Assembly (NCBI GenBank): GCA_963808625.1
Contig: CAWEHK010000049.1
Coordinates: 18,875-82,874, forward strand
Direction of reading: 5' to 3'
Length of the DNA stretch: 64,000 bases
From: an uncultured delta proteobacterium
GTDB lineage: Bacteria > Desulfobacterota > Syntrophobacteria > Syntrophobacterales > Syntrophobacteraceae
Shown one piece after another: positions 4,067-23,041 of this stretch. The notes beneath the pieces were generated by a model. That model ran no database searches, was not told the origin of the DNA, and worked only from the letters and a program-made list of their open reading frames with translations. Position numbers and translations under genes: made by a program. Each line of letters begins with the position of its first letter. The stretch's first letter is position 1.

Positions 4067-7000
4067 ATGAAGAAAACTTGCACCCTTTCCGATGAAAACC
4101 CGGGAGAGCGGATCACTTCACTGACGGCCCAAATTGTTTCCGAATTCGAGGTGGCGATGGGTAGTTCCAGCCGGGTAAAGGAGCTCTGCACCGAGCTCTC
4201 GAAGTTCTTGGAAACGGCGCCGGTTTTTCCCGATCGTCCGCAATTGGAGCGCCTGGTTTCCGTGGTTGGCAAGCGGACGGGAGCCATGGTCGAACCGCTC
4301 TTCGATCTGCTCGTCCAGCTCTCCTGGAGAATCGACGATCCCTGGGTTGTGCTGGAAGGCATGCTGAACGTCCGCGACCATGCTCTGATGCGCAGAACTC
4401 TGGAAGAAATTCTCAAGCTAACGGAAGCCGGAAAGCTCCTGGTGGATCTTGAAGTTCTCCAAATCTTCGCCGAAAACGTCGAGAAAGAGGGGAACCCCAT
4501 CAGGGAAGCGGAGCATCTGAAGATTCTGGCCAGGATCATCCACCTGGCCGCCTTGCCGCTGCCGGACTTGCAGCAAGACCCGATTGCCTGGCTCTACCTG
4601 TCGTCATCTCAGCTCCAACTGCGCCAGCTCGCCGCGCGCCTCCTCGATGCCGAAGCCAAGCCGGTGGCGGCGGACCTCGCCCAGACCATTCTTGGCGAAG
4701 ACGCTGTCCAGGTCCTGGCCCCCTACCTTGCGTTTACGCGGGCAACTCACCTGGATCTGCTCTACCTCATTCCCATTCCCGGCCAGCCGCCACCCTGCCT
4801 CAGCGGCGTGAGGGAAGCGGAAAAGCTTTGCGGCAGCCAACTGCTTCGGGAGGTGATCGCGGCGCTCGGCTGGGGGCGTTTCAATTTCGGCCTGGATGCC
4901 GGCAAAGGCGTCAATATCAGTATCGGAGGCTCGTTTCCCCTGGTCGTCTCCCCGGTCGAAACAACCCTTTTCGATGGCCTCGAAGAAGCTCGCCGTACCG
5001 GCGAGCACTTCCTGTTCACCGCCCATGGAGGACTCCCTGTCGAGACCCGGAAGACTTCCGGCGAGGACGACGTGGTCTCCCGTTTCCGCTCCTACAATGT
5101 CACCCATTCGGAAGTACTCACGGAAATTCTGGACGTAGCCCCGCTGACCCGGGAAAAAGTCGAGCGGATTCTGGAAAAGATGGACCGGATTACCAGTGAT
5201 TTTAAGGCGCTCTTTTCTTCGTATGCCGAAGAGTGCGCCATTCTACCGGAGCTGTACCGGAACCTTCGGGAGCGGATTGTGCACGAGCTGGATCAGGAGA
5301 CTTCCGAACTGCAACTCTCCGCCGAACTGACGCGGCTGGTGCAAATGTTCGAGGACCCGGCATCCCTTGGCTCCGTGCGAACCCTGCATGGCCTCAAGCG
5401 CTACCTGCACCAGCGCGGTCTGCGCCTGGGTTTCCGCCTGGTGGAATCGGGAGGGGCCACCAACCGCACCGTAACCCTTGTGGTGGCATCGTCCCGGCGG
5501 ATTACTCATGTCACCCGCGACTTCCAATATGTGAATTTCGGCTCGGAACGAAACATCACGACGATGACCGAAATACCCTATCCGGTGAAGGTCGTGGTCG
5601 ATGGTCTCAGTCGCCAGATCCTTCACGGCCAGCAGCGTCTTCCCGGAATCCGGGTTTTTTGCTACGGCAACGAGGTCCACTATTACCTCACCTTTCTCAA
5701 TCATCCGGCGTTTTTGCGCATCGACTTCTCGCCCCCGCTGCGGGGCGGCATGATCGACCTGGAATACTACGGCGTCAGCAAGAATGAGCTCGAGATGCAC
5801 CCGAATATTGCGCTGGATGCGATCCAGCAGTTTTTCCGACCAGCTCGAGTTTGACGTCCGGGTAGAAAACACGCGCGTTCATGCCCGTTACGACAAGGAG
5901 CGGGCCTTGAGTTTGGGGGACATCTGCGAAAAGGCGGAAGCCCTTTTTCGCCTGGCGCCCTATCTCATGGAAATCGACTGGGTCATCGGGTCACTGGACC
6001 TCTCAGAGGACGCCAAGAAGGCCGCCGCAGAGGCGTGGGCCTGGTTCTTCGCCCACTGGGGGGTGCTGCCCATCGACCAGATGCTGACCCAAAATCGGCT
6101 GGGCATTTTGCTCGGGATTGAGTCCAGCGCACTACTGGGGAACGGGAGATTATATGGTCAGGGGGCTCCCCTACCGTGATCGCTTCACGAGAATTCCCCC
6201 GGCGGGCCTGTTCCCCGCGCTCCGCTCGGTCCTGCACGAACTGGGGCAGGAAGTCGACCCGCTTTTTGAAGAAGGCGGCGGCCACGAATGGGGACAAATC
6301 TACCTCGAAAACATGGTGCTGCTCCCCCTGCGCAAAGCGGTGATGCGCGGAGAAATCATCGAAACGGCGAAAGGATACGAAAAAAGTCCGCGAGGAGCTA
6401 TTTGCGCGAAAACATGAAACGGAGTTCTTTGCGGAAATTCTGACGGCTGAAGACGAAACCTCCTGGGTATCGCCTCCTCTCGCGGCGATCATGGCGACGC
6501 TCGAGGGCGACCACCCGATCCCGCTGGGGGTGCGCCTCTCCTCTTTCGTGCTGGCTCATCTGGTTGCGCCTTTGGAGCGGACGCTGCGCTTCCAGACCAG
6601 CGGCAGTCTCAACGGCTACGAGGTGCAGCGGGCCGCCATGGCGCTTTGCGGCAAGGAACTCGGCCTGTATGTGTTCCGGGACGGGGCCGGCATCATCCGG
6701 TTGGCCATGTTTTCTCACGGGGAATCCCTCTATCTCGGCGCGCCAGCATCCCGCTTCCCGCTGGCAGTCCAACGGCAGCATCGATCCCGCGGAATTCGCG
6801 GAACTGCTCTGGCTGAACAATTATCTCACGGCGGGCATGGAATCGGTGAAAACGGACGTCTGCGTGGGCGCCGAAGACGTTCTCTCGTGCTTCCAAAGAA
6901 TCAACCCCCAGCAGCGGCCCCGTCCCATTCCGGGGGACAATGTCATCGAGGGGCTCAAAGCCTCTCCCGGCCGCGCCGTGGCGAAGGTGCTGTTCGGCAC

Positions 7001-9254
7001 GCGGGGCCGCCAGCCCGAGGACTTCCATGACACCATCCTGGTGGCGCCGGCAATCACCCCGGAGGACAACAGCTTTCTCTACCATTCAGCGGGGGTGGTC
7101 TCGATCGGCGGCGGGATTCTCAGCCACGCCGGCTTGATCGCGGTGCAGTTCCACAAACCCGCGCTCATTATCTCCGGGCGCTGGCAGGAGTCGGCGGTGG
7201 GTCCCCCCTTTCTTCTCTACAGCACCATCGAATACCAGGAAGAAGAAAAGGCAATCAATGACTACCAGATTACCATCCGGCGCGACGTCCATAAGAAGGA
7301 GCGGCGGCTGCAGGAGGGCGACCTGGTGGTGCTCGATGCCGACGATGGGACCCTGCGGGTCCTCGGTCAGGACCGCGAAGTCTTGAGCCTGCATGAGAGC
7401 ATTCGTCACTTCGGAGAGACGGGCCAGCGCCTGGCGCGGGCCACCGAGGAGAAGGAGATCCTGGTTCTCCGGGGCCGCCGACTGCGGGCGCGTCACCAGA
7501 TCGAAAAGCATCTGACGCAGTTGAAAGATCTTCTCCTGGCCCATCATGTGGTCCAGGAACTGTTTGTGGGGAAAGATCTTGCCGGCGACAGCGGGGCCCA
7601 AAGCGAGAAGGGCCGGTTCCTCTCCCTGCTGCTGGCCAATCGCCGGGTCGGGGCTCCCTGCCGCGAATTCATTTTCGAAATTTCCCGAAACCTTCAGCAC
7701 CGCTATGCCGACCGTTCGGCAGAGGGCAGACAGCGGCTCCCTCTTTCCGACAATCCTTATGAGATTCTCTCTTTGCGTTTGCAGGTGCTGCGCCTCCGCC
7801 GCGCCCTTCAGGACACCTCCACGTCCCTGCAGTCCTGCAACTTCGAGCCGGTCTTCTGTGACACCTCGGTGGCTTCGGAAATAAGCGAGCTGGCTCGCCG
7901 CCGACTGCAACATTTGCACGACACGCTGGTGAAAAACGTCAGCGAAACGGTTTCCTCCGGGAAGACGGATTTCCGCCTGCGCCATCTGGTCCGCCAGATT
8001 CAGCGCCTGGATACCGTGCTCGAGACGCCGCCGGAGCTTCGAAAATCAGTCGATGAGATCAGGAACACCATCGTCCAGAATGATCGGCAGGCACGCCGGA
8101 GCCTTCAGGATCGCCGGGTCCTCGGACCTGCCGACGGAGGCTTCGAGATCTACACGGCGATTGGCTGGAAAGCCGCAAACCTGGCCGAGATCGAACGGCT
8201 GGGCGGGCGCCGGCTGGTCCCGCCGTGGTTTGCGGTAACGAACCAGGTGTTCCAGGAAGTCTTGAGCGCACCGCTGGATAAGAGCCTCAGCAGTGCCGAA
8301 GGGTTTCCCCCGAGTATCGCTACCGTGAATGATGCGGTTGACGCAATCCTTGCCCGCGAGGACTGGAACAATCTGCAAAAATCCCGGCAGATCCGACAAC
8401 TTTGGGGAAAAATCACGATTCCTCAGGCCATTGCCGACGAGGTTGCCGCGGCCTATGAGCAACTTTCCAAAGACATACCCGAAGGATCGACGCCCGATGG
8501 GAAAGATGCGGAACCTTTCGTCGCCATTCGCTCCTCCGGTCGGGAAGAAGATACGGAGAATTTCACCCGTGCGGGAGAATTCGAGTCCTTTCTTTACATT
8601 CGCGGCCGCGAGCAACTGCTGGAATATTTGAAGCGTGCCTGGAGCGGCCTGTGGACGGAACGGGCGATCCACAATCGCGGTGTCCTGGGGACCCAGTTGG
8701 AGAAGGTGGTGGGCGGCATCATCATTCAGCGCAATGCCTGGTCGCGTGTTTCCGGCGTGCTCCAGACCGTGAACATCGCCGAAGACAAGCTGCGGGAAAT
8801 GGTCATCAATGTCGGCCTTGGCCTGGGTGAAGGCATCGTCTCCGGGACGGTGGCCGCCGATCAGATCGTCGTTGCCAAGACCGACAACCTGCAAACCGCT
8901 CCCCTTCGGTTTCGCTACATCACGGCCGACAAGCGCGAACAGGTGGTGTTCAATGCGCGCGCCGGCTATGGCGTGATCCGCTCACAGACGCTTTACCACC
9001 AGCGGCTTCGCCCCGCGATCGAATACGTCGAACTGGCCGAGCTGGTGGCCATTGCCGATCGGCTCGAAGCGGCTTACGGGCATCCCCTCGATATCGAGTT
9101 CGGCATCGAAGGCGCCAAGCTCTGGATCCTCCAGGCCCGGCCGGTTGGCACCTTCCCGGCGCTGCTGCGGGAAACCGTGCAGCTCTATCCGTTTTCGGGA
9201 AGGCAATTATTGAGATGTCTTTCAATCCGGAGGAGCCGGCGGGATTGCTTTTGA
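4067..9254 (+). CDS. Giant (~1,700 aa) PEP-synthase/dikinase-like protein: unknown N region, phospho-His swivel domain, helical region, C-terminal ATP-grasp (PPDK_N); frameshifted
   Basis: Overlapping ORFs 4067..5854, 5784..6179, 6118..6417, 6491..7030, 6564..9254; His domain GLKASPG..GGILSHAGLIA..EGDLVVLDADDG; ATP-grasp IGWKAANLAE, VAIRSSGREED, GLGEGIVSG, DIEFG..WILQARPV. Confidence 0.8.
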
Positions 9255-9279
9255 CATGCTTTGAACCTGTTGCTACGAT
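9251..9279 (+). promoter_or_regulatory. sigma70-type promoter (TTGACA-17-TACGAT, extended TGn)
   Basis: Consensus -35 at 9251-9256, 17-bp spacer, -10 at 9274-9279, upstream of phd and the maeB-like gene. Confidence 0.6.
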
Positions 9280-9284
9280 AGCTT

Positions 9285-9427
9285 GTTTCCATCCGGAAAC
9301 CCACCTGTTGCGTAGGGGCGGGCTTTACGCCCGCCCGAAATGGACAATAAATCCAGCACATTTCGGGAGGGGATAAACCCCTACCCCTACAGTCCGAACT
9401 CAAACATGTGCAGTTTCCGGACGAACA
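9285..9427. mobile_element. MITE-like element family M1 copy
   Basis: GTTTCCATCCGGAAAC ... GTTTCCGGACGAAC ends; GTAGGGGCGGGCTTTACGCCCGCCC hairpin. Confidence 0.75.
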
Positions 9428-9448
9428 ATGGCTACAAGAGGTGAAAGA

Positions 9449-9732
9449 ATGCAATTGGTCGGCATAAGGGAATTGAAGAATAGACTCACCCACTACCTCG
9501 AAATTGCCAAGAGTGGTGACAAAGATAGTTGTAACGGACCGAGGGGTACCTGTGGCAATCCTGCACAATCTGGATCAAGTCGAGGAGGAGATGACACTGG
9601 AAGAAAGGTTGGTTTCCTTTCAAAACAGGGCTTTGTGACGTTGCCAAGGAAGCGACTGGGTTTCCGTCGCTTACCGGGGTCAAGATCAAAGGCGAATCCT
9701 TGTCCGAAACGGTGATCAAGGAACGTAGATGA
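9449..9732 (+). CDS. Phd/YefM-family antitoxin, orphan, frameshifted
   Basis: MQLVGIRELKNRLTHYLEIAKSG, then IVVTDRGVPVAIL in a shifted frame, ending SETVIKERR*; no toxin follows. Confidence 0.75.
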
Positions 9733-9751
9733 TTTATTAGGAGATAATTTC

Positions 9752-12013
9752 ATGATTCGAGCTAAGGACGCGCTCCGATACCACGAAGGCGATCGCCCCG
9801 GAAAAATCGAACTGAGGGCCACCAAACCGTGCCTGACTCCACTGGAAATGCGCCTTGCCTACCTGCCGGGCGCGTTGTTCGCTTCGGCAGCGATCGTCGA
9901 GGACCCCTCCAAGATCTTCCGCTACACCTCCCGCGCAAACCTTGTGGGAGTCATCACCAACGGCACGGCGGTGCCCGATCTGGGCAATGTCGGCCCGGAG
10001 GCGGCAAAACCGATCCAGGAGGGCATGGTCGTCCTGTTCAAGCGGCTGGCGGATATCGATGTTTTTGACCTCGAGTTGAACACCACCGACCCCGAGCGCT
10101 TCATCGAGACGGTGCTCACCCTCGAGCCCACCTTCGGGGGCATCAACCTCAAGGACATTCACTTTCCCGAAGGTCTCTACATCTATGACCGGCTCAACGA
10201 GGCCATGAACATTCCCGTATTCCACCAGAACCTCTACAGCTCTGCCGTGGTCGCGGCGGCGGCCCTGATCAATGCCCTGGACCTGGTGGACAAGAACATC
10301 GAGGAAGCCCGCGTCGTCATCTGCGGCATCGGCAACATGGGGACCGGCTGCGCCCGGCTTCTTCTGCAGCTGGGGGTGCAGCCGGAAAATCTCCTCTGCT
10401 ACGATTTCAACGGCCTCGTGCATCCGGACCGCAAGGATTTGCTCGAGTACCAGCGGGTTTTTGCCCGGAATCATCCGGCGCGGACCCTGGCGGAAGGCAT
10501 GCGGGGCGCCGATATCTTCCTCGGAGCCTCGGCCGGTGGGGTGGTCACCCAGGAAATGGTGCGCGCCATGAACCCCTACCCGATTGTTTTTGCGCTCGCC
10601 ATTCCCGAACCCGAAATCAGCTATGAAGCCGCGCGCGCCAGTCGCCGCGACGTCATTGTGGCAACCGGCCTGGGCCAATATCCCAACGCGATCCTCGATA
10701 CATTGAGCTTCCCCTATATTTTCCGGGGCGCTCTGGACGTCCAGGCGACCCAGATCACGGAAGGGATGCTCATCGCGGCGGCGCGCGCCCTGGCGGAACT
10801 GGCGCGCGAAGAGATTGTCGAAGAGGTCGAGCGGGCCTACGGTTATGAGCACTTTACCTTCGGCCCCGAATACCTCCTGCCCAAGCCCATCGATCCGCGC
10901 ATCCTGCTGCGCGAGTCGGCCGCCGTGGCGCAGCAGGCCATCGACGAAGGGGTGGCGCGCATTTCCATGGAAACCGAGCCCTATCAGGAGAGCCTGATCG
11001 TGCGCCTGGGGACCGAACGGGAGACCCTGCGCGGACTGGTCATGAAGGCTCGCCAGAAGAACCTCAAGGTCGTTTTCTCCAGCGGGTCCAGCGAGCAGAT
11101 TGTGCGAGCCTGCTCCATTCTCATCAACGAGGGCATCGCCAGCCCGATCCTGCTTGGGGGTGAAGAAGAAATCAGGGAGCTCATCGACCGGCTTGATCTC
11201 GATCTTGGTGGGGTGCAGATCATCGACCCGGTCCGCAGTCCGCTCTTTGAGACGTATGTCGAGGAATACTACCGGATGCGCCGCCGCCGGGGGGTGATCC
11301 TGGATGAGGCCAGAGAGCGCATGCGGCAGCGGGACTACTTTGCCTCCCTCATGCTCCACATGGGGGCGGCGGACATGATGATCGGCGGGGTTTCCATCCA
11401 CTATGCGGATTCCCTCCGGACGATCATGGAAGTCATCGGGCCGGCCCCGGGAGTGCGCAAAGTTTCGAGCCATCACATGGTGCTGCTGCACAAGAACGTC
11501 TATTTTCTGGCTGATTGCGGCGTGAATATCGATCCGGATGCCGAAGACTTGGCGGAAACCGCGCTGCTTGCCGCCAATCGGGCGCGTTCTCTGGGCATTG
11601 AACCGCGCGTGGCGATGCTCTCCTTTTCAAGCTTCGGCAGCGTCGATCATCCCTTTACGAGAAAGGTGCGCCGCGCCACCGAAATTGCCAAGGAACTGGC
11701 GCCCGACCTGGCCATCGACGGTGAAATCCAATTGAACACGGCCTTGAATGGAATTCGCCGGCAACGGTATTTTCCCTTTTCAGAACTGAAAAATGATGCC
11801 AACGTCCTCATTTTTCCGGACCTTCAGTCGGGCAACATCGCCCTCGATCTCCTGCAATGCATGGTGGAAGAAGCGGTTTTGATCGGCCCTCTGCTGACGG
11901 GCACACGCTTACCCGTCCATCCTCGCCCATACGGCTTTTCCGTGGAAGAGGTGGTGAACCTGACCACCCTCGGCGTCGTTGAGGCCTCCACCGCAACCAG
12001 CCGCATTTATTGA
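9752..12013 (+). CDS. maeB: MaeB-like malic enzyme/phosphotransacetylase-domain fusion with degenerate malic-enzyme active site
   Basis: Intact 753 aa with colinear MaeB motifs ([59 protein letters not shown]), but EGK->EGM, NLED->NLKD, HDDQHG->HQNLYS. Confidence 0.9.
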
Positions 12014-15490: not shown

Positions 15491-16201
15491 TTAAAACGCC
15501 TCGATGAACGGACGCAGGATGAAGTAGATGCCGAGGAGCGCAATGCCCACGCCGGCGCATCGTCGAAACCAAAGCCCTCCTTCATGGAAAGAGCTGCTCT
15601 CCAGCAACCGTCTTACCGTTGCGGTCGAACTTCCCGCCACGGCAATGGGGACACAGTGTCCGATGCCAAAAAGGGTGATGAAGAGCAGGCCGGTTGCGAT
15701 CTTCTGCTGAATGGTGATGATCGCGAGAATGGGCGCAATAAAGCCGAAGGTGCAGGAACCGGAAAGAACGCCGTAGGCCAAACCCAGAAAGAAGGCACCC
15801 GACAGCCCCTTGAGCTTGATGCGGCCGAGCATGCTGCCGGACATCGAACAGTTCGACACGCCGAGCATGTCGAGGGCCACCCAGATCAGGATAGCGCCGA
15901 CCAGGATGGTCCAATAGGGTCCCACCTCGCCGAGCATGCGGCCGAGCAGCGAGCAGATGATCCCGACCAGGGCGATGGTGATGAAGAGGCCCACCGTGAA
16001 GGCAAAGGCATAGTGTACGGCATGGTTCGCTTTGAGGGCTTTTTCCTGCCCCGCCACGTAGCTCACGATCAGGGGAATGGAGGCCAGATGGCAGGGGCTG
16101 AACACGACACTGATCATCCCCCAGAGAAAGCAGCCCAGCGCGGCAAGGGCTGTCCCCGCCAACATCCACGAGTTGACCGTCAAGAACAGCTGATCAAACA
16201 T
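15491..16201 (-). CDS. ccdA: CcdA/DsbD-type transmembrane thiol-disulfide transporter
   Basis: FSPCHLASIPL and GSCTFGFIAP Cys motifs, about 6 TM. Confidence 0.88.
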   Translation of the reverse strand: MFDQLFLTVNSWMLAGTALAALGCFLWGMISVVFSPCHLASIPLIVSYVAGQEKALKANHAVHYAFAFTVGLFITIALVGIICSLLGRMLGEVGPYWTILVGAILIWVALDMLGVSNCSMSGSMLGRIKLKGLSGAFFLGLAYGVLSGSCTFGFIAPILAIITIQQKIATGLLFITLFGIGHCVPIAVAGSSTATVRRLLESSSFHEGGLWFRRCAGVGIALLGIYFILRPFIEAF

Positions 16202-16216
16202 TCTTCCGGCCCCCGA

Positions 16217-16613
16217 TCACTGCTTTTCCACACCCAGTTGCTCCAGCTTGGCCACGATACTGCCTTTGTCGAAGAAGCCCTCATGCCGGTAAACTTCCTT
16301 CCCTTCCCGGTCGTAGAAAATCTGCGTCGGGATCGAGCGAATGCGGTATTTTTTCCCTTCCTCCGGATTCTGCCAGACATCGATGAACACAATAGCAGCT
16401 TTGCCGTTGTACTCTTTTTCAAGCTCCTCCATGATTGGAGCCATCAGCTTGCAGGGGATGCACTTGCGAGCCCCGATGTCGATCATGGTCACCATGCCTT
16501 TCACCGGCAATTCTGAAGGGACAGCAGCCGTTTCTCCCGCGAAGGACAGGGGCAATTCCAAGAAATCCAAACGACAATCCAAGTACAACCGCCAAAACCA
16601 CGAATCGCTTCAC
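16217..16613 (-). CDS. Exported thioredoxin-family protein, frameshift in signal region
   Basis: CIPC active site, SIPTQIFYD..G.EVYRHEG; hydrophobic N-terminus in ORF 16419..16613. Confidence 0.85.
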
Positions 16614-16810
16614 TTAACAAACCTCCTTAAAGTTTCAAGATTGCCCGAGCACCACAAGCATCACCACAAACCACGCCAACGGAAAATTCCAAAGTGCCTT
16701 CTTCAAACATTTTCTCCGCTTGAGGAGCCATCCCCTGGTTATGCCCATTCGTTCAGACTCCGTTCTCTGCTTCGGACTGCGTTCACCGCTGTTCGATCTC
16801 TCGTTACACA

Positions 16811-17919
16811 TCAGCCAACGGATGAACTTCGGCTAAGGCTCCAAGAACGTGACAGATGCCTGTCGGGGTTTCGACGGAAGGGGAAATACTTGCTCTTGAA
16901 CCAGAGCGCCACGTTGACCAGACTGATCAATACCGGAACTTCCACCAGGGGGCCGATGACGGCGGCAAAGGCCTCCCCCGAGTTGATGCCGAAGACGGCC
17001 ACCGCGACTGCGATAGCCAGTTCGAAATTATTGGACGCGGCCGTGAAGCTCAGAGTGGTTGATTGCTCGTAGGTTGCTCCTACTTTCATGGAGAGACGAA
17101 AGAAACGAAAAACATGATCACGAAATAGATGCACAGCGGTATGGCCACTCGCAGAACATCCCCTGGCAGTTGCACGATGTATTCACCTTTGAGTGAGAAC
17201 ATCACCAGAATGGTAAAGAGCAAGGCAATCAGGGTGATGGGGCTAATTTTGGGAATGAATTTTTGTTCGTACCATTGCTTGCCTTTGGTCTTGAGGCCGA
17301 TGAATCGGGAGAGCATGCCTGCAATAAAGGGAATACCGAGATAGATGAACACGCTCTCGGCAATCTGGCGCATGGAAATGTCGACCAGAACCCCGGTCAT
17401 GCCGAACCAGCGCGGGAGCATGGTGATGAAAATGTAGGCATAGAGGGAGAAGAAAAGTACCTGGAAGATCGAGTTGAAAGCCACCAGGCCGGCGCAGTAT
17501 TCCGTATCGCCGTCCGCCAGATCATTCCAGACGATGACCATGGCGATGCATCGGGCGAGTCCGATCAGGATCAGCCCTACCATGTATTCATGGTAGCCGG
17601 AGAGGAAAGTGATGGCCAAGACGAACATAAGGATCGGGCCGATCACCCAGTTTTGGATAAGGGAGAGAGCCAGGACCTTGACATTTCGAAACACCTCTCC
17701 CAGTTGCTCGTACTTTACCTTGGCGAGGGGCGGGTACATCATGAGGATGAGGCCGATGGCGATAGGGATATTGGTGGTGTCTACCTGAAAGGTGTTGATC
17801 AGGTCGCGGATGCCGGGATACAGGTATCCTCCCCCTACACCAACAGCCATGGCCAGGAAAATCCACAGGGTCAAAAAGCGGTCAAGAAAAGAGAGTTTCT
17901 TGGTAACTGAAGCTTCCAT
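16811..17919 (-). CDS. acr3: Acr3 arsenite efflux transporter, frameshifted
   Basis: [61 protein letters not shown]. Confidence 0.93.
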
Positions 17920-17946
17920 GAGCCTTCTCCTCATCTCTATTCAGTT

Positions 17947-18391
17947 TTATTCATCCAGAATTTCCGGAAGTTTTTCCACGAACTCCTTGATTTCATCGCG
18001 AACACGCCGGTAGTGAACCATCGCTTCCTCTTCCGTCTGCGCACCGGCAGCGAGACGGGGAGGATCATCAAAGCCCACATGCAGCACCCTGGTTTTGGCG
18101 GGAAAGAAAGGACATCCCTGATGGGCCTGATCGCAGAGCGTGATTACATACTCGAATTCTATGTGTTCGAGAGTATCAACATCCTTCGAGGCTTGACCTG
18201 AAATATCGATGCCGACCTCAGCCATGGCTTGCACCGCCTTGGGGTCAACACCATGGGGAGCGACGCCGGCAGAATAGGCCTCAATCTCGGTCGCCCTTTA
18301 AGACGCGAGTCCAGGCTTCGGCCATCTGGCTCCGGCAGGAATTGCCCGTGCATAAAAAAAGGACCTTCAATTTCTCTGCTTTTGCAGCCAT
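17947..18391 (-). CDS. arsC: Thioredoxin-coupled arsenate reductase (LMWP fold), frameshifted
   Basis: [35 protein letters not shown]. Confidence 0.9.
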
Positions 18392-18425
18392 CGTCTCCTG
18401 CCTCCTCGCATCATAAGAGTTAAAG

Positions 18426-18950
18426 TTACCAGTCGAGTTGAAACTGCCCGAGATAGCTTGCAAGCTTCCGTTTGTTGTCTTCACTCAGAGGGGGACAATC
18501 GTCCGGTCCTTTGCCTCCCTCTGCCACTTGGGCGGCAAAAACCATACAGGTTGGTTGACCACATTCGCGGCAGTTTGTTTTCGGCAAAAGCCTGAGGATC
18601 TCAATCACCCGGGGTTTGGGAGCGCCTTCAAAACGCGGTTCGATTTCTTCTCGCTTTTCCCAGGTTTCGTTGATCTCCCCCTTGAGCCATTCCAGGATCT
18701 TGTCCACTTCGGTTTCATCCTTCAGAGCATTGACGGCAATAAGACGAGGATGCACCGTGATGAGCTTGCCGTGGGTCTTGAAAGTGACCGAAGGCGGCTC
18801 CCTGGTATACTGGTATCCTCCCAGCACCGCATTGAGATAGGGCAGGACTTCGGTGATGTCCTCATCCAGATGGGCAATGCAGTGCAAGGACTGAAAGCTC
18901 GGGTTGCACTCCGGCCGAAAGATTTCTTTCCGATAACTTTTCAGTAACAT
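18426..18950 (-). CDS. Fe-S cluster protein (C-terminal [15 protein letters not shown] motif)
   Basis: 4Fe-4S motif of the CFeSP/RnfB FeS type in an intact ORF. Confidence 0.8.
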
Positions 18951-18979
18951 GTGACACCTCCCCCCTGGCAACAAGCAGG

Positions 18980-19210
18980 CTATTTGAGCCAGCGCAGGAC
19001 TTCTCCCTTCGAGGGGACCTTCCCAGTAGTCTTAACAGTGCCATCAATCACCACTGCCGGTGTGGAGAAAATGCCGTGCCTGGCAATCTCCGCCAGATCA
19101 CTGACGTACTCAACCTCGGCGGCTATTCCAGCTTCAGCAACTGCCTCTTTCACCACCTTCTCCGTTTCGTGACACTTCCTGCAACCTGGTCCCAAGACTT
19201 TGATTTTCAT
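18980..19210 (-). CDS. Small thioredoxin-like redox-active disulfide protein (MTH895 type)
   Basis: MKIKVLGPGCRKC...STPAVVIDG..KTTGKVP. Confidence 0.88.
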   Translation of the reverse strand: MKIKVLGPGCRKCHETEKVVKEAVAEAGIAAEVEYVSDLAEIARHGIFSTPAVVIDGTVKTTGKVPSKGEVLRWLK

Positions 19211-19269
19211 TTGTTTCTCCTTGTGTAACCATATGCTGGTAATCGATCCAAACACTTGATTCCTGGATC

Positions 19270-19399
19270 GTTTCCATCCGGAAACACGTTTGACTGTAGG
19301 GGAGGGGTTTATCCCCTCCCGAAAATCCACAGCTTTTCGCCAACTTGCGGGCGGGAATAAATCCCGCCCCTACGAATTATGGGGTTCCCGGATAGACAG
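19270..19399. mobile_element. MITE-like element family M1 copy, inverted
   Basis: GTTTCCATCCGGAAAC ... TTCCCGGATAGAC; internal GTAGGGGAGGGGTTTATCCCCTCCC. Confidence 0.75.
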
Positions 19400-20532
19400 C
19401 TAGATCAGCATGTTGAACAAATAGCCGACAATGATGATGCCCACCGCGACGACAGCCGTGAAAACCATGATCAGTCTCGGCTTGAGGACCTTGCGCAAAA
19501 TCACCGTCTCCGGAAACGAGATGGCGACCACGGACATCATGAAGGCGAGCACGGTTCCCATTGCCGCGCCTTTCTCGATGAGGGCCGATACCACGGGGAT
19601 GATCCCGGCCGCATTGGAGTATATGGGGATGCCGATGAGCACCGCGGCCGGAACCGACCACCAGGCCCCCTTGCCCATGATCGAGGCGAGGTAACCCTCC
19701 GGCACGTAACCATGAATGCCCGCTCCAACGGCAATGCCCACGATGACGTAGATCCACACCTTGCCGACAATATCGCGCACGGCTTCAAGGCCAAAATTGA
19801 TGCGATCGGCGAGGCTTTTTCGCTCCTCGTCGTAGACGCCGCTCTCCCCACCTGGATTTGATAAACCCAATCCTCGAGGTGATGTTCCATCTTCAAACGG
19901 CCAATCGTCCAGCCGGCAAGCATGGCAATGATCAAGCCCGTGCTCATATAAATCGCGGCGATTTCCCAGCCGAAAAGTCCGTAGAGCAGCACCAGTGCGA
20001 TCTCGTTGACCATCGGCGCGGAAATGAGAAAGGAAAAGGTCACCCCGAGCGGTACGGAAGCGCTGAGAAAACCGATAAAAAGGGGCACCGCCGAGCAGGA
20101 GCAAAAGGGGGTCACAATGCCGAGCAGCGCGGCCAGTACATTGCCAACCGATTCACGCTTGCCGGCAAGGATCCTGCGGGTGCGCTCCGGGGTAAAGTAG
20201 GAGCGGATGAGGCCCACGCCAAAGACCACCAGGACCAGGAGCATGAGGACTTTCGGGGTGTCGTAGAGGAAGAATTCCACCGCGCTGGTAAGATGCTGTG
20301 TATTTCCCAGCCACGCAATGTGAGTGGCCAGCAGTTCCACCAAATGGCGAGCCAACCAGCCGGCAACCGGCGCCAGACTCTTGTAGACAACCCACCAGGC
20401 CACCAGCAAGGGGACCCCGATCAAGAGATAAATGAGCGTCGATTTTTGGGTGTCTCCCGAGGAGGAGTCAGCGCTGGCATTCAATTCCTCACCGGGCAGA
20501 CAAATGCAGCTTTCAGCCTTGTCCGTTCTCAT
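19400..20532 (-). CDS. ArsP/DUF318-family permease, frameshifted
   Basis: EFFLYDTPK, TPFCSCSAVPLF, FLISAPMVNE, GIPIYSNAAG, AISFPE. Confidence 0.88.
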
Positions 20533-20579
20533 TCCTTGTCTCCATTTCTGAAAAACCTATCGCACCGTTTGGCGCTTAA

Positions 20580-20717
20580 GAGACTGTCCAAAAACAACTT
20601 GCACTCATTTCAGCCCTTTTTCGAACCACGAAGAACACGAAGAGCACGAAGAAATCACTTCGTGTCCTTTTCGTGTTTTTCGTGGTAAGAGAAGGCCTCT
20701 TATTTTTGGACGCCCCC
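20580..20717. mobile_element. MITE-like family M2 (TIR GAGACTGTCCAAAAA / TTTTTGGACGCCCCC, flanked by TAA)
   Basis: Imperfect TIRs, TAA on both sides, central CCACGAAGAACACGAAG palindrome; copies at 15083, 23859, 30285. Confidence 0.75.
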
Positions 20718-20720
20718 TAA

Positions 20721-20865
20721 GTACAGCACCACACAAATGAGTGTCCAGTTTCCACACGTCATGCCCGCGAAGGCGGGCATCCAAGCTTTGTCTCTGGATT
20801 CCCGCCAGAAGCATGCGGGAATTGACGCCCGGTGATAATGGTCACTTAATTCTGTGGAGCTGTAC
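20721..20865. mobile_element. MITE-like family M3 (TIR GTACAGCwCCACA..AGTG.CCA) enclosing GTCATGCCCGCGAAGGCGGGCATCCA hairpin
   Basis: ~27-bp imperfect TIRs; related element at 25698..25837. Confidence 0.65.
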
Positions 20866-20896
20866 CAAGATCTTGGAAGCTCGTAAAAGTTCAAGC

Positions 20897-21412
20897 CTAC
20901 TCCTTTCGGGCAAGTGATCGATGCGCCTCAATGAGCCAGGCCTTGATCTGCTTCCGGGGAGGCACTCTGCCTACCATTGCGATCCTGCCGTTGATTACCA
21001 GGGCGGGGGTCCCCATCACACCATAGCGGGCAATCTCCTTGATATCGGTGACGTGGTCCAGGTTTGCGGGAAAATCCAGTTCCGTCAGCAGTTCCATGAC
21101 CGTCTGGGTGAGATCATGGCACTGCACGCAGCCCATGCCCAAGACTTTGATCTCCAGTCCCCGGGGTGATTCGTCCTCACAGGCTTGTCCCATGAATTTG
21201 CGGAACTCCCGGACAAAGGCCTGCGCATACTCATCTCGGGCAACACTTGGGATGTAGTTGTCGCGGCCGAGACGCTCCAGCATCGCGGCGGCGATTTCGT
21301 CATCGCTTGTTTCGCCATGAGTCCGGGCCAGTTCCCCCATGACCTGCCGGATGCCAATGATGCTGATGTCAAACCCCCCAATCCTGATTTTGGTGATATC
21401 CTTCTCGGTCAT
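20897..21412 (-). CDS. Thioredoxin-family protein with N-terminal extension (MTH895-like C domain)
   Basis: IKVLGMGCVQC, YGVMGTPALVING..GRVP. Confidence 0.8.
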   Translation of the reverse strand: MTEKDITKIRIGGFDISIIGIRQVMGELARTHGETSDDEIAAAMLERLGRDNYIPSVARDEYAQAFVREFRKFMGQACEDESPRGLEIKVLGMGCVQCHDLTQTVMELLTELDFPANLDHVTDIKEIARYGVMGTPALVINGRIAMVGRVPPRKQIKAWLIEAHRSLARKE

Positions 21413-21449
21413 GGTTGCCTTCTCACTTTGACTTGACGATGGGAAAACG

Positions 21450-21794
21450 TCATTTCTTGCAGATCTCTTCCCGGCGAATGGAAGGAAGGCGCTCGGCAAT
21501 GCGCACGACCTCGGGATCATCCTGCAGCCAATGCCGCAAGTTCCCCAGGAGAGCAGCCGCATAGGGGCTGCTGTTCCCATTCGCCAGTTGATAATTGACC
21601 CAGAGCCCGCTTTTTCGGCAGTCGACCAGGCCGGCGTCCTCGAGAATTTTCAGATGTTTTGATACGGTTGGCTGGGCAAGCTGCAGGGTGGCCTGGATCT
21701 CACAGACACACAGTGATTTATGCTGAAGCATTTTAAGAATCTTGACCCGGTTGGGATCAGACAGTGCTTTCATGACTCTTATAAATTGTTTCAT
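21450..21794 (-). CDS. arsR: ArsR/SmtB-family metalloregulator
   Basis: KALSDPNRVKIL, LCVCEI, QPTVSKHLKIL; heads the ars cluster. Confidence 0.9.
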   Translation of the reverse strand: MKQFIRVMKALSDPNRVKILKMLQHKSLCVCEIQATLQLAQPTVSKHLKILEDAGLVDCRKSGLWVNYQLANGNSSPYAAALLGNLRHWLQDDPEVVRIAERLPSIRREEICKK

Positions 21795-21807
21795 AGTACC
21801 TCCCCAG

Positions 21808-21829
21808 TATATTGCTGGCTTGGAATATA
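21808..21829. promoter_or_regulatory. Candidate ArsR operator (TATATTGC-6-GGAATATA imperfect inverted repeat)
   Basis: Inverted repeat between a minus-strand TTGACA (near 21849-21854) and the arsR start. Confidence 0.4.
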
Positions 21830-22057
21830 TCGAATGATCTGCCCGGAATGTCAAGGGCCTCGATCTGCAAAAAGAATCATGGACATGGGCAGGCATGCTG
21901 AAGAGGCCCGGTGCCGTCACGATTACATTCCTTGGAATGAATATGAAGCACCGCCTGCCGGAATTTTGGGTTGCTTCGCATAGGAATGTCCATTAAGGTT
22001 GGTGAGGTCCTGTTGGGTGAGCTTTCATCAGGGAATCGCAGCGAAGGAGGGGAACTG

Positions 22058-23041
22058 GTGTCGGAGAGCGAACTTTATGATCTCATCATTGTGGGTGGAG
22101 GCCCGGGGGGCCTTACCGCCGGCATGTATGCCATGAGGGCCGCGCTCAAAACGGTACTCATCGAGAAGGGAGTGCCGGGGGGGCAGGTAGCCATCACCAA
22201 AGCGGTGGAAAACTACCCCGGATTCATCGAAATCGGCGGCTTTGAGTTGTGCGACAAATTTTTGCAGCACGCCAAATGGTATGGTCTGGAGATGATTCAG
22301 CAAGAGGTTGTCGCGGTGGATCCGGGGCTCGAGTTCCATTCCGTCCGCCTCGCCAATGGCGCCGTGGTGAACGCCCACGCCGTGATTCTGGCGCCCGGCG
22401 GCAGTGCTCGCAGGCTCAACGTGCCGGGGGAGAACGAAAACTTCGGCAAAGGTGTCTCCTACTGTGCCACCTGTGACGGCTTTTTCTTCCGGGACAAGAC
22501 GGTGGTGGTTGTTGGTGGTGGCGATACCGCCCTCGAGGATGCGCTCTACCTCTCTAAAATCACCAAACGGGTCTACCTCGCCCATCGCCGGGATGCGTTT
22601 CGGGGCAGCAGAATCCTGCAGCAGCGGGTGCTGGCTGAATGCGGAATCGAAGTGCTCTGGAATACGGTGGTTACGGAAATAAAGTCCAACGAGCAGGGGG
22701 TTTGCGAAGTTTCCCTCAAGGATACGAAAACCGGTGAGCCAAGGGCACTGGCAACGGACGGTGTCTTCATCTTCGTTGGTTTTGCTCCCAACAACCAGTT
22801 GGTGCCCGCCGGCATCAGAGCGAATGCGAACGGTTATGTCGTCACCGACGAGAAGTGCGAGACGAGCATTCCGGGCATCTTTGCCATCGGCGATCTCCGG
22901 CAGAAGTATGCCAATCAGATTGTCATCGCCGCGGCCGACGGCTGCATCGCCGCTCTGGCTGCCGCGCATTACGTGGAAATGAAAAAGGCGAGCGCCGTCT
23001 GTTCGATGCCTCCCAGCTCCCTGGCTGCGGGCTCACAGTAG
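22058..23041 (+). CDS. trxB: Thioredoxin-disulfide reductase
   Basis: GGGPGG, ENYPGF, GVSYCATCDG, VVGGGDTA, TSIPGIFAIGD. Confidence 0.95.
   Translation: MSESELYDLIIVGGGPGGLTAGMYAMRAALKTVLIEKGVPGGQVAITKAVENYPGFIEIGGFELCDKFLQHAKWYGLEMIQQEVVAVDPGLEFHSVRLANGAVVNAHAVILAPGGSARRLNVPGENENFGKGVSYCATCDGFFFRDKTVVVVGGGDTALEDALYLSKITKRVYLAHRRDAFRGSRILQQRVLAECGIEVLWNTVVTEIKSNEQGVCEVSLKDTKTGEPRALATDGVFIFVGFAPNNQLVPAGIRANANGYVVTDEKCETSIPGIFAIGDLRQKYANQIVIAAADGCIAALAAAHYVEMKKASAVCSMPPSSLAAGSQ

Follow-up and report, generated by a model that had tools for sequence, protein, structure and literature searches.

A malic enzyme paralog without catalytic residues, encoded next to a giant swivel-histidine dikinase: a candidate acyl-CoA-sensing subunit

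We analyzed a 64,000-nucleotide stretch of contig CAWEHK010000049.1 from an uncultured member of the Syntrophobacteraceae (hereinafter the window), in which the open reading frame (ORF) at 9752..12013 on the plus strand encodes a full-length paralog of the hybrid malic enzyme MaeB that is devoid of the catalytic residues (hereinafter MaeB*; 753 aa, protein P0001). As stated in the first-pass annotation of this DNA, the ORF contains no internal stop codon in an assembly that is otherwise prone to frameshifts, the neighboring genes carrying indels. A Shine-Dalgarno-like AGGAG (9739..9743, +) is located 8 nt 5' of the ATG. Pfam matches to PF00390, PF03949 and PF01515 delineate a malic-enzyme (ME) domain with a remodeled pocket (9752..10966), which is joined by the hybrid-specific hook subdomain (10811..10864, from the alignment to MaeB of Bdellovibrio bacteriovorus) and a linker to a phosphotransacetylase (PTA)-like domain of the non-catalytic type (11036..11971, from Pfam and the coenzyme A (CoA)-site residues), all on the plus strand. 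In a HMMER search, the solved hybrid malic enzymes align with MaeB* across its entire length, and the AlphaFold2 (AF2) model (mean predicted local distance difference test score (pLDDT) of 83) superposes on full-length B. bacteriovorus MaeB with a template-modeling (TM) score of up to 0.87. The score of MaeB*, the only sequence so scored, against the NCBIfam model NF009501 is 683.5 bits, below the curated cut-off of 1178. The same genome encodes, on another contig, an intact canonical maeB that is 47% identical to MaeB*.

The gene directly upstream (4067..9254, +), delineated from its recurrence beside MaeB*, Pfam matches and comparison with the same-genus genome G029, encodes a swivel-His dikinase of about 1,700 aa. 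The domain order is an N-terminal region without a recognized domain, a His domain (around residue 1,000), a helical region and a C-terminal ATP-grasp domain. In the window, about five small indels (near 5839, 6133, 6168, 6387 and 6735) interrupt this gene, whereas G029 carries an intact 1,718-aa version (P0123); given that four of these indels do not occur in the contigs of related strains and that other genes of the assembly are also split, these frameshifts are likely assembly errors. No RNA data set carrying the sequence was listed among 20 sequencing runs, and none of the runs contained the strain of the window. The phospho-carrier histidine of the swivel domain (motif GGGILSH, H1025 in P0123) is at 7125..7127 (+), and the ATP-grasp (PPDK_N) domain, with the conserved Lys and Arg motifs intact in the alignment, at 8163..9150 (+). 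H1025 is present in 119 of the 121 aligned dikinases (the other two have gaps) and K1373 and R1493 in 118 each; the swivel phospho-His motif has been described (PMC12167813). All eight full-length partners that were scanned contain PF01326 and PF00391, and none of the eight contains a Pfam domain for the phosphoenolpyruvate (PEP)/pyruvate-binding barrel. Because 119 of the 121 dikinases have Leu in place of the regulatory Thr of PEP synthase, the PEP-synthase mode of control is excluded. To judge from these motifs, the partner is a member of the swivel-His dikinase superfamily and neither a PEP synthase nor a pyruvate, phosphate dikinase (PPDK).

Two observations on this gene pair stand apart. 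The N-terminal third of the dikinase gene (4067-5836) is 81% identical to that of G029, the C-terminal half (6741-9203) 95% and MaeB* 97%, a step that possibly reflects recombination within the gene. The two genes are separated in the window by an insert of about 490 bp (9198..9738), absent in G029, that begins in the last dikinase codons and consists of hairpin repeats and a small ORF whose parts lie in three different frames; the small ORF has no Pfam match, and we take it to resemble a Phd/YefM antitoxin with a three-codon MIY stub behind it. Four metagenome loci have gaps of 344-442 nt at the same junction.

The residues replaced in MaeB* fall on the catalytic and metal positions of the characterized MaeBs. 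In the HMMER alignment to the solved enzymes (E. coli numbering equals MaeB* numbering plus 2), M92, K134, D135, Q159 and N160 correspond to K94, E136, D137, D161 and D162 of E. coli MaeB and to K107, E149, D150, D174 and D175 of B. bacteriovorus MaeB, and residues Y52, N300, K250, R242 and D233 of the latter correspond to Y37, I284, Q234, R227 and D218. D150 and D175 of the B. bacteriovorus enzyme have metal roles. Its catalytic residues are Y52, K107, E149 and D174, the NADP residues are N300, K250, R242 and D233, and a divalent cation is required (PMC7902834); the accessible literature yielded no usable mutagenesis of the catalytic residues. The ME pocket of MaeB* contains M92 (ATG at 10025), K134 (AAG at 10151), Q159 (10226), N160 (10229), I284 (10601), L315 and D316 (10694 and 10697) in place of catalytic, metal and substrate residues, and is without the base lysine, two of the three metal ligands and the malate/nicotinamide asparagines. 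All six motif changes reported in the first-pass annotation (to EGM, NLKD, HQNLYSS, GIGNM, LAIP and NAILD) are present, with matching codons, and so is the catalytic tyrosine of LAYLPG that it had listed as retained (Y37, codon at 9860, equivalent to B. bacteriovorus Y52). Two refinements apply: GIGNMG still fits GxGxxG, and one of the metal ligands, D135, is retained.

These features extend to the entire MaeB* clade. The catalytic Lys, the metal Glu and the second metal Asp occur in none of the 121 members that were compared but in all 144 sequences of the canonical MaeB set, drawn from the loci analyzed, in which the catalytic positions are invariant; the pattern is not due to chance. The base Lys is replaced by Met, Val, Ile or Leu in 121/121 members; Y37 is present in all of them and the metal ligand D135 in 118. 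Among the 197 positions conserved in at least 95% of canonical MaeBs, 33 are replaced clade-wide and 139 are kept; all 33 lie within residues 41-395, i.e., in the ME domain, a contrast that is partly expected given the smaller number of invariant positions in the PTA domain that could be replaced. Polar residues have become fixed in the old active site, namely N160 and D316 (121/121 each), E or Q at 159 (120/121) and K134 (105/121), and R34 and Q89 are specific to the clade.

That MaeB* is still a malic enzyme with substitute residues appears very unlikely. The retention of Y37 and D135, the conservative E159 of most members and the database names of many of them (malate dehydrogenase (decarboxylating) or NADP-dependent malic enzyme) would fit such an activity. 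These names are automatic, however, the NCBIfam score is far below the cut-off, and the base Lys is missing in every member along with two ligands of the required cation and three substrate or cofactor Asn residues. By sequence, MaeB*, although a MaeB homolog, does not belong among the active malic enzymes, and the loss of oxidative malate decarboxylation proposed in the first-pass annotation is well supported at this level by the clade-wide replacements and the intact canonical paralog in the same genome.

Of 8,000 candidates scored in a homolog search, 7,999 were returned as matches. The best 120 (69-93% identity) are all without the Lys, the Glu and the second Asp of the metal site, so that replacements of the same kind are not private to this assembly. 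In a tree of 30 MaeB* and 44 canonical sequences (midpoint root, no outgroup), MaeB* forms a single clade on a long stem (about 0.87 substitutions per site; Shimodaira-Hasegawa-like approximate likelihood ratio test (SH-aLRT) support of 100). The ratio of nonsynonymous to synonymous substitution rates (dN/dS; Nei-Gojobori) is 0.036 in comparison with the nearest relative and 0.05-0.10 with six more relatives that have the partner (overall range 0.036-0.104), and is low in both domains; values close to 0.05 for near relatives indicate purifying selection, whereas comparisons over larger distances approach saturation. Decay or an assembly artefact could be invoked in view of the many indels in the assembly and the broken dikinase. 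However, identical amino acid replacements occur with different synonymous codons in 16 genomes, and 120 homolog clusters share the pattern; with the dN/dS of 0.036 from the nearest relative, this explanation is refuted for the clade and is extremely improbable overall. The clade-wide replacements, monophyly, low dN/dS and intact canonical paralog together give good sequence support to neofunctionalization over decay, as had been suggested.

By source name, MaeB* is encoded by Syntrophobacteria/Desulfobacterales, Eisenbacteria, Acidobacteriota, Calditrichota, Gemmatimonadota, Myxococcota and Bacteroidota, that is, mostly by uncultured bacteria of at least seven phyla. The distribution is patchy: 13 of the 96 genomes of the order of the window, none of 300 further genomes in a phylum-wide sample, 2 of the 151 genomes of an acidobacterial class (a denominator that includes one unpublished MaeB*-free genome) and 5 of 71 in a myxococcal family. 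When the MaeB* alignment was used to scan for loci genome-wide, canonical MaeB dominated the matches, with MaeB* at 5 of 80 loci.

The regulatory parts of the MaeB scaffold are largely retained. The acetyl-CoA site, which is the mark of clade 2 MaeBs (PMC12704298), is represented in MaeB* by the predicted site residues R510, R513, Y551, R556, N592, Q660, N695 and P713. In B. bacteriovorus numbering, the counts among the 121 members are R535 105, K538 (as Arg) 108, Y576 113, R581 109, N616 109, Q683 116, N718 110, P735 118 and Q748 113, so that 9 of the 13 listed site residues appear to be kept or conservatively changed in 105-118 members; three or four members are without a PTA domain. The N618 position is mostly Asp or Glu, as in canonical MaeB. 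R535 and N718 are needed for acetyl-CoA inhibition of B. bacteriovorus MaeB, and an active phosphotransacetylase is expected to have Asp at the V746 position and Ser or Thr at the Y576 position (PMC7902834); in the clade, these are Leu in 108/121 and Tyr in 113/121, respectively. At 11918-11930 of the window, PRP replaces the LLQ of the clade at residues 724-726, and with it the equivalent of Q748 is gone in this genus. The hook residues Y363 and F370 (Y379 and F386 in B. bacteriovorus) are invariant in all 77 aligned clade members; the MaeB hook transmits the allosteric signal, and the rotation of the ME domain was measured at 69 degrees (PMC7902834). In the nucleotide-binding motif, G192 and G197 are present in 121/121 members and G194 in 113/121, and D218 and R227 (D233 and R242 in B. 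bacteriovorus) are kept. With the CoA-site and hook residues retained and the catalytic residues lost, the sensor and the relay seem to be conserved and the catalytic output gone.

The main clue, missed by the first-pass annotation, which had posed the alternative of a pseudoenzyme and new chemistry, is the dikinase. In neighborhood clustering, it is the sole recurring neighbor of MaeB*, directly upstream in 13 of 16 loci. Conversely, in a dikinase-led survey that covered the 80 best of 183 metagenome loci, MaeB* is directly downstream at 51 of 51 informative loci, two of these calls being based on the first ~90 residues only, and none has a canonical MaeB there; the remaining 29 of the 80 end at a contig edge. 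The stop and start codons overlap (ATGA) in 33 of 61 pairs, and the gap is at most 30 nt in 46 of the 61. For 44 pairs, the dikinase and MaeB* trees are congruent, with a patristic correlation r of 0.89 and 21 of 24 supported splits in common, which indicates co-inheritance, not contact. Of 22 MaeB* genomes, 18 have a dikinase that could be detected, and among 83 MaeB*-free genomes of the order only one has a dikinase fragment. Two apparent dikinase-MaeB* fusions (open frames of 2,596 and 2,435 aa) were discarded, one as a shadow frame and the other as arising after a frameshift inside the dikinase. In one genus that has MaeB* and no detected dikinase, 16 otherwise conserved MaeB* positions are changed, including K134, D218, Q234 and N592; the MaeB* genes of this genus (L119-L121) are located in unrelated gene contexts. 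No description of the pair or its parts was found in the literature covered, which mostly left out subscription journals and supplements. The pair is real, conserved and apparently undescribed. Databases name its members malic enzyme and pyruvate,water dikinase, so that metabolic reconstructions credit these genomes with two activities that they probably do not have.

The N-terminal region of the dikinase contains a conserved core (residues ~425-660, approximately 5340..6030, +, with the RTLHGLKRYLHQ motif at 5378), which is presumed to be the acceptor side and which profile comparison relates to a domain denoted here domain X. The invariant residues are H447, K450, R451, H454, Q455, H552, D615, K616 and D643. 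The core profile recovers 151 representatives (50% identity level). Among them are proteins of 1,460-4,330 aa in which His and ATP-grasp domains follow each other in the order seen in the partner, two of them with FHA domains. Five giant proteins (P0380, P0381, P0385, P0386 and P0387; 2,986-6,226 aa) each contain a distant copy of the core, and the four giants of this set that were scanned have ATP-grasp (4/4), His (3/4) and FHA (2/4) domains. HHalign aligned the dikinase core with domain X, the C-terminal domain of proteins with the order ATP-grasp, His, X, over ~225 columns (probability 93%, E 3e-7; 95% for distant relatives); with only 11 sequences in the domain X template, this supports distant homology, not a function. 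A deeper core profile run against 304 long ORFs and 304 reversed decoys placed seven ATP-grasp-His-X proteins first (best E 1e-7) and an eighth at rank ten. No recognizable protein of this type was present among the best 150 of the 151 core-profile matches, 11 of which were Pfam-scanned, and the link therefore rests on the profile-profile and small-database tests. Of 34 chosen neighbors at eight ATP-grasp-His-X loci, 25 are signaling or acetyltransferase genes (histidine kinases, receivers, universal stress proteins (USPs), an anti-sigma-type kinase and acetyl-CoA-dependent acetyltransferases), four are TauE and five have no match; the neighborhoods lean towards a predicted regulatory role. 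The ATP-grasp-His-X genes themselves (L303-L311; C39:47509-50160 and C8:226249-228927 in the genome of the window, the others in relatives) are annotated only as PEP-synthase-like, and their clusters repeatedly contain histidine kinases of the dCache type, stand-alone receivers, USPs, TauE and acetyltransferases that depend on acetyl-CoA. The pair provides a handle on this widespread dikinase domain, which lacks a known acceptor.

The AF2 model of dikinase residues 190-940 is confident (pLDDT 89.9, predicted TM score (pTM) 0.90). It had no Foldseek match at E<=0.001; the fold search returned generic four-helix-bundle matches (best Z 11.0, root-mean-square deviation (rmsd) 4.6, 121 aligned) and a weak match resembling the C-terminal domain of MotA (Z 6.9, rmsd 4.0, 103 aligned). 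As the 751-residue model was searched whole and one helical bundle dominates the matches, this is no demonstration of a new fold. An Atlas search with residues 1-930 gave no match, and a candidate internal repeat in the N-terminal region was rejected (HHalign 0.3%).

Taken together, these observations suggest that MaeB* and the dikinase probably form one metabolite-sensing unit. The specific reading that we prefer, and regard as evenly poised, is that MaeB* is a non-catalytic acyl-CoA-sensing subunit that controls the dikinase; here we infer the ligand binding, the complex, the direction of control and the acceptor. Under this scheme, MaeB* would be the pseudoenzyme subunit of a two-gene module, without malic-enzyme chemistry, and would keep the MaeB architecture of a presumably hexameric PTA hub, linker helices, hook and ME dimers. 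It would be made 1:1 with the upstream dikinase and dock on it, probably via the remodeled ME domain. Acyl-CoA at the PTA hub, and perhaps also NAD(P)(H), would drive a large ME-domain rotation of the MaeB type, the output of which would be control of the dikinase instead of malate turnover. The dikinase would move the ATP beta-phosphate onto the swivel histidine H1025 and then to an acceptor at domain X. The catalytic loss, purifying selection, the CoA-site residues, linkage, the ATGA overlaps, the congruent trees and the dikinase motifs are established at the sequence level; the invariant hook residues, the complex prediction described next, the signaling neighborhoods of the domain X relatives, the FHA domains of giant relatives and the missing regulatory Thr also speak for this scheme.

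The physical association was modeled with the G029 dikinase (residues 190-809), the G029 MaeB* ME domain (residues 28-404) and three controls. The score was 0.39 against 0.00 for the best control, with partner pLDDT of at least 89 and at least 95% of the contacts shared between runs. Of 157 solved complexes, 116 attained the mark, as did 2 of 215 mismatches; only 18 of these solved complexes did so with a score of 0.60 or less, but both of the mismatches did. No like complex was present among the PDB search matches, making recall of a solved structure unlikely. Combined with the genetic evidence, the score modestly raises the odds of a complex, and the prediction thus lends weak support to association of the two proteins.

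Several observations weigh against acyl-CoA sensing coupled to dikinase control. The complex prediction yielded no interface, and a pass of this kind is more often wrong than right unless the complex was likely beforehand; linked genes yield congruent trees and overlaps without binding. No dikinase was found in four MaeB* genomes of one genus (G024-G027; two of them 99% complete), in which MaeB* is under purifying selection (dN/dS 0.05-0.07) and hence appears to be valuable without it. In the CoA pocket, the end that would face the acetyl group is altered (Y721 to Leu in 94 of the 121 members, K722 to His, Asp or Asn, and T614 to Ala in 93), the hexamer-interface E544 position is mostly Ala (61) or Glu (40), the genus of the window has Pro at the Q748 equivalent, and the NADP contacts K250 and N300 are changed to Gln and to Thr or Ile, respectively. 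Finally, the polar residues that have become fixed where the active site used to be (K134, N160, D316, R34 and Q89) could equally mean new binding or chemistry.

This last point leads to one of two competing explanations that are not fully exclusive with the preferred one. The remodeled ME pocket might bind a small molecule and provide the acceptor site, or catalyze a second, metal-independent step in a two-enzyme pathway with the dikinase, still under acyl-CoA control, which we hold to be fairly unlikely. K134 could replace the metal ion beside D135 and E159, together with D316, R34 and Y37; the pocket replacements are fixed and polar rather than random, GxGxxG, D218 and R227 are retained, the dikinase is without a PEP/pyruvate-binding barrel, and K134, D218 and N592 are altered in the dikinase-less genus. 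Nevertheless, the dikinase has its own core with invariant His, Lys, Arg and Asp, homologous to domain X of dikinases that have no MaeB* nearby; across the 16 loci, the pair has no further enzyme or transporter gene as a recurrent neighbor, and the nicotinamide-stacking Asn is gone. Alternatively, MaeB* could act on canonical MaeB as an inhibitory or adaptor subunit of mixed hexamers, where it may bring in the dikinase, or could itself be the phosphorylation target of the dikinase. Canonical MaeB, whole or in fragments, occurs in 18 of the 22 genomes with MaeB*, among them the four dikinase-less ones, the scaffold is conserved at the 139 of 197 positions noted above, and the PPDK-derived His kinase VadK interacts with metabolic enzymes (bioRxiv 10.1101/2025.10.30.685616). 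This proposal is unlikely, considering that canonical MaeB was not found in the other four genomes (G030, G038, G096 and G489; drafts) and is common in the lineages concerned anyway (some MaeB match in 66 of 71 and 121 of 151 genomes), that none of the loci examined has the maeB and MaeB* genes side by side, and that the crossover helix and E544 differ.

A bolder form of the preferred reading, which we consider rather doubtful, is that the dead malic enzyme serves as a hexameric acyl-CoA/redox receptor whose ~70-degree rotation would switch a docked ATP-to-AMP phosphohistidine dikinase that phosphorylates proteins via domain X, a new class of signaling system. If so, domain X would mark a wider set of unrecognized signaling dikinases, in the two-component clusters of the order of the window and in the giant FHA-bearing proteins. 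In either form of the reading, a malic enzyme would be used purely as a sensor, and one of the best-understood long-range allosteric switches would be repurposed for another enzyme. MaeB* and the dikinase are a testable two-protein system at the malate/pyruvate/acetyl-CoA node.

Other features of the window and the genomes compared are less closely connected to this pair. A Memo-family gene (PF01875; 2322-3859), split by a frameshift, lies upstream of the dikinase in the window and in L118. The cluster at 15491-23041 contains several frameshifted genes and presumably represents an arsenic resistance/redox region (an ArsR-like regulator, an Acr3-like transporter, an arsenate-reductase-like protein, thioredoxin, thioredoxin reductase and a permease). 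In six other loci (L339-L344, in G130, G149, G295, G208, G242 and G104), ORFs of ~850-890 aa encode two tandem malic-enzyme domains, with INLEDI and HDDQHGT in the C-terminal copy only (6/6 checked), which suggests that the N-terminal copy is another pseudo-malic-enzyme of independent origin, joined to its active twin.

Among known systems, VadK (bioRxiv 10.1101/2025.10.30.685616) and PspR (PMC10948481) are precedents for the use of the PEP-synthase/PPDK scaffold in regulation of carbon metabolism; unlike the partner dikinase, they have other architectures, and the accessible text mentions no pseudoenzyme sensor partner. PEP synthase/PPDK, rifampin phosphotransferase and HpeHI (PMC4844700, PMC12167813) share the ATP-grasp and His-swivel domains with the partner, which differs in the order of acceptor region, His and ATP-grasp, in the absence of a pyruvate barrel and in being about twice the size. 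Swivel-His relatives with divergent acceptor domains have been described, with no mention of a pseudo-malic-enzyme subunit in the accessible text (PMC4844700, PMC12167813). For the rifampin phosphotransferase/HpeH type, PF27448 (Rph_4th) clusters come up for the partner at 0.82-0.83, a lead from the Atlas only. The uncharacterized ATP-grasp-His-X proteins, which come from the same taxonomic order as the window (C39 and C8 in the genome of the window; L293, L297-L302), have a C-terminal domain X that aligns with the partner core but are unlike the partner in domain order, in size (~870 aa) and in being encoded close to genes for histidine kinases, receivers, USPs, TauE and acetyltransferases; the neighboring genes scanned at these loci include no MaeB*. 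Plant glucan, water dikinase has the same order as the partner, namely acceptor region, His domain and C-terminal nucleotide-binding domain; by contrast, the eight partner proteins have no carbohydrate-binding Pfam domain, and the PDB matches of the partner include no sequence match to this enzyme. The closest characterized relative of MaeB* in the comparison is the clade 2 MaeB of B. bacteriovorus (PDB 6ZNG, 9KRU/9KRV; PMC7902834, PMC12704298), which has the same ME-hook-linker-PTA organization, 43% identity and a non-catalytic PTA domain, and on the acetyl-CoA-bound form of which the MaeB* model reaches the TM score given above. Unlike that enzyme, MaeB* is without the catalytic Lys, belongs to a long-stemmed clade of its own and is linked to a giant dikinase.

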